In this document: positions 3,334-7,017 of the stretch, one piece after another
Layout of the letters: every line of letters begins with the position of its first letter
Numbering within the stretch: the first letter of the stretch is position 1
From: a plasmid
Sequence record: NZ_CP023150.1
Direction: 5' to 3' (one strand)
Length of the DNA stretch: 24,702 nt
Position numbers and translations under genes: made by a program
The notes under the pieces: model-generated
What the model saw: the letters and a program-made list of their open reading frames with translations, nothing else
What the model was told of the DNA's origin: nothing
The model's database searches: none

Positions 3334-3549
3334 AGCACCACGCTACCGGCGCTGAAGAAAACTATCGCATGGCTGACCGCCACTGGCCTTCGTCGAGGGG
3401 GGACAGCGTGGACAGCCGCTCAGACGCCCGCCCGGGCCAGGGCCGGCCGCGCGCAGTAAGGAAGTGGTGCACGCCCGAGCCGGACAACCACCCTCCACGG
3501 AAACGACTTGGGACGCAGATAATTTTCGATGCCAGGCAGCTGCATGAAG

Positions 3550-3566
3550 ATACCGCTGGGGGGTAT
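3550..3566. promoter_or_regulatory. CsoR/RicR-type operator ATACC-GCTGGGGGG-TAT (G-tract flanked by ATACC/GGTAT inverted arms)
   Basis: Read directly. The architecture matches CsoR-family operators (compare B. subtilis copZA operator TACCCTACGGGGGTATGGTA). It lies about 160 bp upstream of the lpqS-like/cysK2/MFS genes. Confidence 0.45.
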
Positions 3567-3725
3567 GCTCTTGCCTGTGTCCGTTCGAGACTTCGATGCG
3601 CCGCTGCTCGCCAGTGGTCGTGGCGTGCTGCGGGTTAACGCGCCGCGGCGGGGTGGCTACGAGTCGGCACCTACGGGTTCAGCCTCGGGTTTTCTGGCTT
3701 TCAGTGCTGGTGGGGTCGGGCTGTC

Positions 3726-4157
3726 ATGAGGTTTGAAGGCGCTAGTGGTAGGTCGCGGCTGCCGGCTGTGGTGGCGGTCGTGGCTGCGCTGTGGATGGCG
3801 GGCTGGCTGCTGGTCATCGGCGCCCATAACGTTGTGGGGGGTTCGCAGTCGGCGGTGTCCCAGCCGGCGGCGCATGCGTTGGTGAGTTCCTTGGATGGTG
3901 GGTTCGCGGTTAACGCGGATTATCCGCATTTGGACAACGGTTCATCGACGCCACACCCTGAGCAGTTCATGACCGCGGTGTTACCGCAGTCGGCCGCCGC
4001 GGCGGCTGCCTTAGGTGTTGTGGTGGTGGCGGCGGCTGCCGTCGCGGGATGGCTGACCTTGCGTGGGGTGCCGGCCGGGCGGGGCCCGCCGGCTGGGTCC
4101 GCCGCTGTTGTCACCGGTCAAGATCGTTTGACCCGGTTCTGTTTGTCTCGTCGCTGA
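3726..4157 (+). CDS. LpqS-like small membrane/secreted protein (positional homolog of lpqS upstream of cysK2)
   Basis: 143-aa ORF with a hydrophobic N-terminus. It sits upstream of cysK2-MFS as in the M. tuberculosis Rv0847-Rv0849 order. No lipobox Cys is seen, so the lipoprotein status is uncertain. Confidence 0.4.
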   Translation: MRFEGASGRSRLPAVVAVVAALWMAGWLLVIGAHNVVGGSQSAVSQPAAHALVSSLDGGFAVNADYPHLDNGSSTPHPEQFMTAVLPQSAAAAAALGVVVVAAAAVAGWLTLRGVPAGRGPPAGSAAVVTGQDRLTRFCLSRR

Positions 4158-4264
4158 CGGGTCAGCGTCAGGTCGTTGCGCCTTAGCGCCGACGGCTGGT
4201 GATCGCTGACCCATGTCACGTGCCGCGCTGTGGTGCGCGGTGTTCGCAGGAAGCGACGATTCAA

Positions 4265-5413
4265 ATGACTGAAGTTCTATCGTTCGACAACACCTATGTT
4301 CAGCCCCTTTCGGCGCTGAAGGTGCATGAGCCGCGGGACTGCGGCCGCGCTGCCCCGGGTACCTATGGGCGTCCCGGCGCGATGGTGGGCCATACCCCGG
4401 TGCTGCGCATTGAGGCGCCGTTGGCCCCGGCCGGGCGGGGGTTTTGGGCCAAGTTGGAGGGATTCAATCCCGGGGGCAGTATGAAAGACCGCCCGGCCAT
4501 GCACATGATCGAACAGGCCCGCGCCCGCGGCGAATTAGCGCCCGGAGCGCGCATCGTGGAATCCACCAGCGGCAGCCTGGGGTTGGGGCTGGCGTTGGCT
4601 GGCCAAGCCTATGGGCATCCGGTCACCGTGGTCACCGACACCGGCATGGAGCCGATCGTGCGCCACATGCTGGCCGCCTACGGCGCCGATGTCGAGCTGG
4701 TCACCGAGCCGCACCCAGTGGGCGGCTGGCAACAGGCCCGCAAAGACCGGGTCGCCCAGCTGCTGGCCGCTCACCCGGGCGCCTGGTGCCCCGACCAGTA
4801 CAGCAACCCCGATAACATCACCGGCTACCAATCCCTGGCCTTAGAGCTGCTCGACCAACTCGGCAACGTCGACGTGCTGGTCTGCTCGGTGGGCACCGGC
4901 GGACACTCCGCCGGCGTGGCGCGGGTGCTGCGCCAATTCAACCCCGACATGAAACTGATCGGGGTCGACACCATCGGCTCGACCATATTCGGTCAACCCG
5001 TCGCCAGCCGACTCATGCGCGGGCTGGGCTCCAGCATTTATCCGCGCAACATCGACTACGACGCCTTCAACGAGGTGCACTGGGTGGCCCCCGCCGAAGC
5101 TGTCTGGGCCGCGCGCACCCTGGCGGCCAGCAATTTCGCCAGCGGCGGCTGGAGCGTGGGCGCAGTGGCGCTGGTGGCCGGTTGGGCCGCGCGCACCTTG
5201 CCCCACGACACTCGGATTGCCGCGGTGTTTCCCGACGGGCCGCAACGCTACTTCGACACCATCTACAACGACGAGTACTGCCGCGAGCACCAGCTGCTGG
5301 ACTGGCAACCCGTCGCCGAGCCCGCGGTCATCACCGACCCCAGCCGGCACGTGGTGACTTCGTGGACCCGCACCACCAACATCACCAACCCCGTACAGGC
5401 CGCAGCAGCATGA
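4265..5413 (+). CDS. cysK2: PLP-dependent cysteine synthase family protein, CysK2-like (S-sulfocysteine synthase type)
   Basis: It has the PLP-Lys motif [11 protein letters not shown] and the Gly-rich loops of the CysK/CBS fold. Start set at MTEVLSF (ATG 4265, RBS GGAAG). The stop overlaps the next start (ATGA). Confidence 0.7.
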
Positions 5414-7017
5414 ACGACTTCCTGACACGGTTGCGGGGGTTCGACGGGCCCAGCCGGGTACTGATGATCAACCAGTTCGGCATCAACATGGGCTTTTACA
5501 TGCTGATGCCGTATCTGGCCGGGTACCTGGCTGGCCCGCTCGGGCTGGCCGCCTGGGCGGTCGGGTTGGTGCTGGGTGTGCGGAATTTCTCCCAGCAGGG
5601 CATGTTCATCGTGGGCGGCACGCTGGCCGACCGGCTGGGCAACAAGCCGCTGATCGTGGCCGGGTGTCTGCTGCGCACCGGCGGGTTCGCGCTGCTGGTG
5701 GTGGCCCAGTCGTTGCCGGCCGTGCTGATCGCCGCGGCCGCCACCGGTTTCGCCGGCGCCTTGTTCAACCCGGCGGTGCGGGCCTATCTGGCCGCTGATG
5801 CCGGTGATCGCCGCGTGGAGGCCTTCGCCATGTTCAACATCTTCTACCAAGCCGGAATCCTGTTGGGCCCGCTGGTCGGACTGACCCTGCTAGCCGTCGA
5901 CTTTCGGGTCACCGCGGCGGCCGCGGCGGCCGTGTTCGCCGTACTCACCGTGGCGCAGCTGCTGGCGCTGCCCCAACGCGGTGTCGACCCGGCGCCACAG
6001 CAGGCGTCGTTCCTGCAGGACTGGCGAGTCGTCCTGGCCAACCGGCCATTCCTGCTCTTCGCCGCAGCGATGATCGGCGCCTACGTGCTGACCTTCCAGG
6101 TCTACCTGGCGCTGCCGCTACAAGCGGCGATGCTCACCCCGCGATATCAAACATGGTTCGTTGCAGCGTTATTCGCCGTTTCCGGCCTGATCGCAGTCGC
6201 CGGACAACTACGCATCACCGGATGGTTCGCCAGCCGGTGGGGCACCAGACGCAGCCTGGTCATCGGCCTGGCCATCCTGGCGGCCTCGTTCGTGCCGCTG
6301 CTTGTCATCCCCGACGGTCAGCGCTTCGGCACACCGGCCGCGGTGGGCGCACTCCTCATCTCGGCGGCCTTGCTCGCGATCGGCTCGGCCGCAATATTTC
6401 CCTTCGAGATGGACACCGTGGTCAGCCTGGCCGGCAACCGGCTGGTGGGCACCCACTACGGGTTCTACAACACCATCGTCGGGGCCGGAATCCTCATCGG
6501 CAACCTGGCCACCGGAGCCGCCTTCGGCGCCGCCCACCGGCTGGGCGCCGGCGCACTGGTGTGGGGCGGGTTAGTCCTCATCGGCGCCTCCGCCGCACTC
6601 GCGCTGCACCGCCTCGACCCCGCACGCCGCCTACGCCCCGCGTCACCCGCGGTGTCCGGCGCGCAGATCCGGCGCTTATCCGACAGGACAAGTCCAGCCC
6701 GGCGCACCCAAAACAAAGCCACGCCGTTTGTCTCTACCTCACCCGCGGTGTTGAGCACCACGGCAAACGACCCGCGCGCTATCGGCTCTGTGGTGACCGC
6801 AGATAAAGCAACCGCGACCGTCGCACCCAGGCCAGCGATTTGCACCGCTGCCGGTGCGGGGACAGCCCTCGCGGCCAGACACTATGGCCGCACACGCCCA
6901 GCGTTGTCACCCCATCAGCGCCAGACCGCAGCGCATGACACCCAGTTGGCAAGCCGCCTCAGCGCCTCGGTGCGGGTTCGTCTGCGGCCGCCGAAGCCCC
7001 CAACATGGCGACCATAG
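5410..7017 (+). CDS. MFS transporter with an unusual ~115-aa low-complexity C-terminal extension
   Basis: The start ATG overlaps the cysK2 stop. There are 12 predicted TM segments ([13 protein letters not shown]... to ...ALALHRL). The frame stays open to 7017 through an Arg/Pro/Ala/Thr-rich tail. Confidence 0.65.

Follow-up and report, generated by a model that had tools for sequence, protein, structure and literature searches.

We analyzed a 24,702-nucleotide stretch of plasmid DNA (NZ_CP023150.1; the whole stretch is called the window below), one copy of a mobilisable (MOBF) plasmid of ~24.7 kb from the Mycobacterium avium complex, and focused on a palindrome that lies ahead of a gene for an LpqS homologue. 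The palindrome, ATACCGCTGGGGGGTAT, occupies positions 3550–3566 on the plus strand and has the extended form ATACC-N7-GGTAT. It is located in a 392-bp divergent intergenic region, between the start of a minus-strand open reading frame (ORF) at 3333 and that of the LpqS ORF at 3726, and lies 160 bp from the LpqS start codon. An earlier note, written from the letters of this DNA alone, had described the site as a CsoR-type palindrome in which a G-tract is framed by ATACC and TAT; the palindrome and its position upstream of the lpqS-like gene were confirmed and its CsoR type was supported, but the framing was not kept, the better parse being TACCG-CTGGG-GGGTA (3551–3565, no strand assigned) with 5-bp arms around a 5-bp spacer. 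This is a RicR-type box with one mismatch to TACCC-N5-GGGTA, and 9 of its 10 arm bases match TACCC/GGGTA (left arm TACCG). RicR is a chromosomal Cu(I)-sensing repressor of mycobacteria that belongs to the CsoR family. Its motif was reportedly defined by Festa et al. in 2011. Here, the motif was derived from Shi et al. 2014 (PMC3944814), who give the sequence of the ricR promoter and primers for it, and from our own comparative set of loci.

The box faces a cassette of three genes on the plus strand. The lpqS homologue (3726–4157; 143 aa) scored 106.4 bits on the NCBIfam LpqS_Mycobact equivalog model (cutoff 35). The annotation pipeline PGAP places its start at 3771; homologues align from the ATG at 3726. 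PF26327 LpqS was found in all 38 homologues (38/38), several of which are named LpqS, and the conserved C-terminal motif AGRGPP...TGQDLLTRFCLSRR is present in the window ORF. Directly 3' of lpqS is a CysK2-like gene of the pyridoxal phosphate (PLP)-dependent cysteine synthase family (4265–5413; Pfam PALP, 201 bits), which encodes a fold-type II PLP enzyme; the nearest solved structure is SbnA, and no NCBIfam equivalog cutoff was reached. The third gene encodes a major facilitator superfamily (MFS) transporter (5410–7017; 535 aa; Pfam MFS_1) and begins 4 bases ahead of the end of the PLP gene, its start overlapping the cysK2 stop (ATGA). The proposed identity of lpqS and the order LpqS, cysteine-synthase-like PLP enzyme, MFS transporter were thus both upheld by the NCBIfam and Pfam matches.

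This gene order is shared widely. The gene next to lpqS on its 3' side is 72–88% identical to the window PLP gene in 17 other loci, and the gene after cysK2 is usually an MFS transporter with 65–86% identity to that of the window. Among the 17 is the mmcO-lpqS locus of M. persicum (L017), where a divergent multicopper oxidase gene stands beside lpqS, which is the M. tuberculosis mmcO-lpqS-cysK2-Rv0849 arrangement. A PPE gene (7042–8238, plus strand; Pfam PPE and PPE-SVP) is a conserved downstream neighbour of the cassette; likewise, pMAH135, M. persicum, and M. attenuatum have a PPE gene 3' of their MFS genes.

We then asked how often such a box precedes lpqS elsewhere. A genome scan with a 10-sequence LpqS alignment returned 17 loci, none from M. 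tuberculosis; 14 loci from the scan, plus pMAH135 (L002) and the M. avium chromosome (L023), formed a comparative set of 16 independent lpqS loci totalling 130 kb. Perfect TACCC-N5-GGGTA boxes occurred 16 times in these 130 kb, and 14 of the 16 fell within 300 bp upstream of lpqS, one per locus. A perfect upstream box is therefore present in 14 of the 16 lpqS loci, including L023, pMAH135, and the M. persicum locus, and the remaining two have imperfect boxes (TACCCCCCCGGGGTG in L014 and TACGGGTACGGGGTA in L008). Because 14 of the 16 loci carry the perfect form, the box can be regarded as a genus-wide conserved feature of the lpqS promoter, on chromosomes and plasmids alike, which bears out the assignment of the plasmid site to the CsoR/RicR operator type. 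The half-site spacing of the plasmid site, TACC-N7-GGTA (equivalent to TACCC-N5-GGGTA), is that of the M. tuberculosis ricR site and of all lpqS and ricR boxes collected here.

Within the window, the strength of the match depends on how the site is described. The extended palindrome ATACC-N7-GGTAT occurs once and was found in none of 100 dinucleotide shuffles. Conversely, TACCC-N5-GGGTA with at most one mismatch also matches once in the window, but at least one match was obtained in 21 of the 100 shuffles, so this criterion is weak on its own and the case rests on context and comparison. We built a palindrome-symmetrised matrix from 17 independent RicR-type boxes, all from outside this plasmid family, and scanned the window with it. 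The 3550 site ranked top with 16.6 bits, followed by a runner-up with 8.7 bits; none of 300 windows simulated with a first-order Markov model reached 16.6 bits (maximum, 15.7 bits). The score is within the range of leave-one-out scores of the training boxes (12.2–28.7 bits), and training without the M. avium ricR box gave 15.3 bits. All four copies of this plasmid family that have been sequenced (three besides the window) share the identical site, which is no proof of selection, as the copies are too alike. The M. avium subsp. hominissuis plasmid pFLAC0181_CHOP101 (NZ_CP040248.1) shows 100% identity over bases 3200–7100 and differs from the window only downstream of 17704.

Two candidate −10 hexamers, read from the sequence, overlap the arms of the box: a putative lpqS promoter element TATGCT (3564–3569, plus strand; TANNNT) on the right arm, and a putative element of the divergent operon, TATCTT (3547–3552, minus strand), on the left. 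A TANNNT hexamer directly follows the box in five homologous loci, and in one of them (L018) it is TATGCT itself. An imperfect 13-nt inverted repeat (CAGGCAGCTGCAT / ATGCTCTTGCCTG; 3533–3545 and 3565–3577) also flanks the box, with its centre 3 bp off that of the box. Two small ORFs that run over the site (3529–3729 and 3252–3638) were rejected as genes because they lack a coding signal in GC content at third codon positions (GC3).

A repressor suited to this box appears to be supplied by the host. The RicR protein of the M. avium complex scored 190.9 bits on the NCBIfam RicR model (cutoff 175), and it was found on at least 1000 contigs, complete chromosomes included, as shown at the species level. 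Its gene lies within a conserved ilvD-ricR-MFS synteny, and ricR belongs to the core chromosomal genes of the complex. In the M. avium complex, the promoter of ricR (L030, L031) contains TACCGGGGCGGGGTA, and the gene is preceded by TTATACCGGGGCGGGGTATAAGCT, whose left arm is TACCG, the same variant as in the plasmid box; in the related species M. mantenii, the box ahead of ricR is perfect (TACCCCGATGGGGTA). The box at M. avium complex ricR resembles the plasmid box in its ATACC-N7-GGTAT outline, its TACCG left and GGGTA right arms, its G-rich spacer, and the TANNNT-type hexamer that comes next, whereas its spacer is GGGCG instead of CTGGG and it controls the chromosomal gene of the regulator itself. 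A further instance is on the M. avium chromosome (L023), where lpqS has a DUF1275 gene 1 kb upstream of it and TACCCCATACCGGTA (4124–4138 of L023; TACCC-N5-CGGTA) lies 63 bp upstream of that DUF1275 gene; the CGGTA right arm is the reverse complement of TACCG. As it is seen at both the ricR and the chromosomal DUF1275 boxes, the TACCG half-site recurs at likely RicR sites in M. avium.

The closest described counterpart is the M. tuberculosis lpqS (Rv0847)-cysK2 (Rv0848)-Rv0849 promoter. There, lpqS is regulated by RicR, as the earlier note had stated, and is cotranscribed with cysK2 and Rv0849; a palindromic motif is present in every RicR-regulated promoter, and the ricR promoter site itself is TACCCCGCTGGGGTA (PMC3944814). 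The plasmid locus shares with it the order LpqS, PLP enzyme, MFS transporter, a palindrome of the TACCC-N5-GGGTA class in a divergent intergenic region, and a predicted regulator, a CsoR paralogue that senses Cu(I), whose gene is located elsewhere, on the chromosome. The plasmid locus differs in that the cassette resides on a mobilisable M. avium complex plasmid of 24.7 kb, that the divergent partner is an operon for a 294-aa protein, a zf-TFIIB protein, and a DUF1275 protein instead of the multicopper oxidase gene mmcO, that one arm of the box has a mismatch (TACCG), and that a PPE gene lies 3' of the MFS gene.

The plasmid also encodes a CsoR-family regulator of its own (13499–13819, minus strand), the sole gene of this family in the window and a candidate persulfide sensor of the CstR/ScCsoR type. 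It fails the NCBIfam RicR model (42.6 bits against the cutoff of 175) and shares 41% identity with RicR of the M. avium complex over a stretch of 61 residues. Two Cys residues are kept, but Gly replaces the copper-ligand His four residues before the second Cys, which leaves the C-H-C pattern incomplete. The protein aligns with the CstR structure 7mq1 and matches the x-C-x-C pattern of persulfide sensors (PMC8643695). On Mycobacterium, Rhodococcus, and Nocardia plasmids, its homologues invariably lie beside genes for sulfide:quinone oxidoreductase (SQR), rhodanese, DUF302, TauE/SafE, MBL-fold, or DsbA proteins.

The predicted operator of this local regulator, TACCATACCCCCTATGGTA, is at 13830–13851 (no strand assigned), with the core TACC-N6-GGTA, TACCCCCTATGGTA, at 13835–13848. 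All 15 operator-like palindromes that we collected beside homologues of the regulator, in 9 loci, have the form TACC-N6-GGTA, and the site of the Streptomyces coelicolor persulfide sensor ScCsoR, which is supported by electrophoretic mobility shift assay (EMSA), is likewise ATACCn6GGTAT (PMC7533328). The 3550 site, with N7, does not have the 16-bp ATACC-N6-GGTAT palindrome of the actinomycete CstR/ScCsoR type. With a matrix derived from N6 sites at other loci, the local operator (site at 13832) scored 20.6 bits and the 3550 site 3.5 bits, whereas the RicR matrix gave 0.1 and 16.6 bits, respectively. The window thus holds two CsoR-family operators (3550–3566 and 13830–13851) and one CsoR-family regulator gene, as had been claimed, and the two operators represent separate classes that are 1 bp apart in spacing. 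The ScCsoR-class operators (PMC7533328) resemble the 3550 site in their outer ATACC/GGTAT pentamers and in the protein superfamily of the regulator, and such a regulator–operator pair is present in the window at 13499–13851; however, they are 1 bp shorter (N6) and are associated with genes for SQR, persulfide dioxygenase, rhodanese, and TauE instead of lpqS. In addition, the longer segment between the regulator gene and mmpS (13827–13853), TTTATACCATACCCCCTATGGTATATAAG, contains overlapping TACC-N6-GGTA and TACC-N11-GGTA palindromes and is conserved in pJCM17324 and pJCM_13573_2.

Several results obtained in silico point in the same direction: the class of the motif, its conserved link to lpqS, the finding that the host species has RicR, and what the local regulator is and which class of site goes with it. 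We consider it likely that 3551–3565 is a RicR box through which chromosomal RicR would control the plasmid lpqS-cysK2-MFS(-PPE) cassette in trans in response to Cu(I). At low copper, host RicR, supplied by the chromosome, would occupy the box, which overlaps the likely −10 region of the cassette promoter, and the cassette would be repressed; a rise in Cu(I) would release RicR from the DNA and permit transcription of the operon, whose genes we infer to be cotranscribed. The plasmid cassette is, in this sense, probably copper-induced through the host regulator. Since the palindrome lies between two divergent units, RicR may repress the divergent operon as well, and the box would then possibly be shared, in parallel to the single-site model proposed for M. 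tuberculosis mmcO-lpqS (PMC3944814).

Several observations weigh against RicR control of the plasmid cassette. The position mismatched here is conserved in 14 of the 16 lpqS boxes, the matrix score of 15.3–16.6 bits is at the low end of the training range, and an extra GGGGTA half-site (TATGGGGTA), found 3' of the box in many lpqS loci, is absent at the 3550 site. A scan of 3250–3850 for the sigma-70 consensus and for terminators detected no promoter and no terminator, and the distance from the box to the start codon is as long as 160 bp. The mismatch, the low score, and the absence of the auxiliary half-site would also be expected if the box were decayed, with weakened binding, a constitutive or leakily repressed cassette, and extra copper-independent LpqS, CysK2, and MFS activity; a 2-nt change in an arm of the ricR promoter site was indeed used to lower repressor binding in M. 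tuberculosis (PMC3944814). We regard such decay as unlikely. TACCG also forms an arm of the box at M. avium complex ricR, which suggests that M. avium RicR tolerates the variant; the outer ATACC/GGTAT pentamers are intact, and the site is unchanged in the four plasmid copies, even though these are too similar to show selection. That the palindrome is a product of chance, or a purely promoter-related sequence to which no repressor binds, would be a most improbable outcome: the frequency of one-mismatch matches in shuffled windows and the lack of a match in the consensus promoter scan are compatible with it, but the site coincides in position with the perfect box of 14 of the 16 homologous loci, and neither its extended palindrome nor its matrix score was reproduced in shuffled or simulated windows.

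A remaining alternative is that the plasmid's CstR/ScCsoR-type regulator binds the 3550 site, alone or together with RicR, which would place lpqS-cysK2-MFS under persulfide control and link the cassette to the SQR module. The outer ATACC...GGTAT pentamers are common to both sites, CysK2-type enzymes act on sulfur compounds, and an SQR-like gene adjoins lpqS in M. ostraviense. Moreover, CsoR-family operators are closely alike in general, and the Firmicute CstR site has N7 as well (PMC8643695), which weighs against assigning the 3550 site to RicR by spacing; spacing is not a universal discriminator for this reason, though it works in the present actinomycete pair. The Streptococcus mitis cst operator, ATATACCCTTATGGGGTATAT, for instance, is of the TACCC-N5-GGGTA form, and the paralogous CsoR and CstR repressors of Firmicutes coexist in one cell without crosstalk on N7 sites that are distinguished by other features (PMC8643695), whereas the two classes on the window plasmid differ in spacing. 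We judge binding by the local regulator to be very unlikely, given the N6 spacing at 15 of 15 collected sites and at the EMSA-tested ScCsoR site and the contrasting matrix scores given above. The two modules also travel independently: the regulator-SQR-MmpSL module is found without the lpqS cassette in M. marseillense pJCM17324, M. kubicae pJCM_13573_2, and a 21-kb M. chimaera plasmid, and the examined regions of pMAH135 and of chromosomes have lpqS cassettes preceded by RicR boxes but not that regulator. The lpqS boxes are conserved on replicons that have no such regulator nearby. Because its sites have 1 bp less between the half-sites, the local regulator should not bind the 3550 site, and the view that it is not the cognate regulator of that site is clearly favoured. 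The earlier note had left the choice between the local regulator and chromosomal RicR in trans; the RicR half of that pair is retained and clearly favoured as the predicted controller of the 3550 site, and the local half is not, as the local regulator is of a His-less persulfide-sensor type with N6 operators. A tie between CysK2 chemistry and the sulfide module, also raised there, is speculation, and the two modules travel separately on related plasmids.

The genes of the plasmid can be divided into three parts. Backbone genes encode ParA, a replication-associated helix-turn-helix protein, a MobF relaxase, and a resolvase. The sulfide module comprises genes for two SQR-type flavoproteins, a DUF2892 protein, the CsoR-family regulator, and MmpS/MmpL. 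The second cargo block encodes a Csp-type copper-storage protein, the DUF1275, zf-TFIIB, and 294-aa hypothetical proteins, and then LpqS, the PLP enzyme, the MFS transporter, and the PPE protein. The divergent operon that shares the intergenic region with lpqS (1353–3333, minus strand; annotation and Pfam) consists of the genes for the 294-aa hypothetical protein (2449–3333), the zf-TFIIB protein (2098–2406), and the DUF1275 protein (1353–2048), the last being a membrane protein. The gene for the Csp-type protein (855–1187), a four-helix bundle with DUF326, thus shares a cargo block with lpqS; the region upstream of this gene yielded no RicR-type box. In the plasmid variant GCA_026011815.1 (L026), an IS256-type transposase gene takes the place of the genes for the Csp-type through the 294-aa protein (1237–2530 of that locus), with the junction near window position 3303, and the lpqS promoter region with its box is unchanged. 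An Rfam scan of the whole window gave no match.

With the box found upstream of its chromosomal homologue, DUF1275 may be a member of the RicR regulon in M. avium. Rv2963 is a RicR-regulon member. Our literature search yielded no link between Rv2963 and the DUF1275 family, and NCBIfam gave no match.

The 3' part of the cassette shows an irregularity. The MFS ORF is ~115 aa longer than its homologues and has an unusual C-terminal tail, in which GC3 falls to 0.66 (last ~220 nt) from 0.85 in the rest of the gene; this gene is not in the PLSDB gene table. The 3' end of the ORF may have been frameshifted or read through.

Further observations concern two other loci of the collection. On the M. ostraviense chromosome (2216–3564 of L009), an SQR-like flavoprotein gene is directly upstream of lpqS; sulfide-oxidation genes and lpqS therefore adjoin on a chromosome too, and a second perfect box (TACCCCGGCTGGGTA, at position 3550 of L009) is found between the SQR-like gene and lpqS. 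On the M. aubagnense plasmid (L003), a 47-nt inverted repeat (CTGTATCCCAGCGC...GCGCTGGGATACAG; 4225–4271) lies upstream of a small gene that precedes cysK2-MFS; a RicR box is absent from this upstream region and from the Rhodococcus locus L004.

Perfect RicR boxes were also observed ahead of other plasmid genes. In pMAH135, TACCCAGCCAGGGTA (1494–1508) is 145 bp upstream of a DUF732 gene, which is a candidate for a second RicR target of that plasmid besides its lpqS cassette. On the M. chimaera plasmid NZ_CP015276.1, TACCCCTTCAGGGTA (13435–13449 of L034) precedes an L,D-transpeptidase gene (Big_10 and YkuD) by ~230 bp, and a gene of the same L,D-transpeptidase family is located two genes 3' of chromosomal ricR. 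If boxes precede such genes (the M. chimaera L,D-transpeptidase and the pMAH135 DUF732 genes), wiring of cargo to RicR in trans could be general on mycobacterial plasmids.

Regulon, box, and gene cassette have all been described before in M. tuberculosis, and neither the regulator nor the operator is of a new kind. What is new is the genus-wide presence of the box upstream of lpqS, the plasmid copy that retains it, and the coexistence on one plasmid of two operator classes that differ by 1 bp. That the plasmid copy keeps the box would imply control in trans by the host. A broader view, in which the cassette with its PPE gene, and perhaps the divergent DUF1275 operon, is a mobile extension of the RicR regulon, pre-wired to the copper sensor of whichever recipient it enters and insulated from the plasmid's persulfide sensor by N7 versus N6 spacing, seems to us evenly poised between right and wrong. 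If RicR binds the box, this small mobilisable plasmid, which circulates among clinical strains of the M. avium complex, would enlarge the copper-defence regulon of its host by a second, copper-inducible copy of lpqS-cysK2-MFS without bringing a copper sensor of its own. It would then provide a clear case of horizontally acquired cargo that uses a conserved chromosomal repressor, as well as a natural setting in which to test how two paralogues of the CsoR family in one cell avoid crosstalk, apparently through a single base pair of operator spacing.

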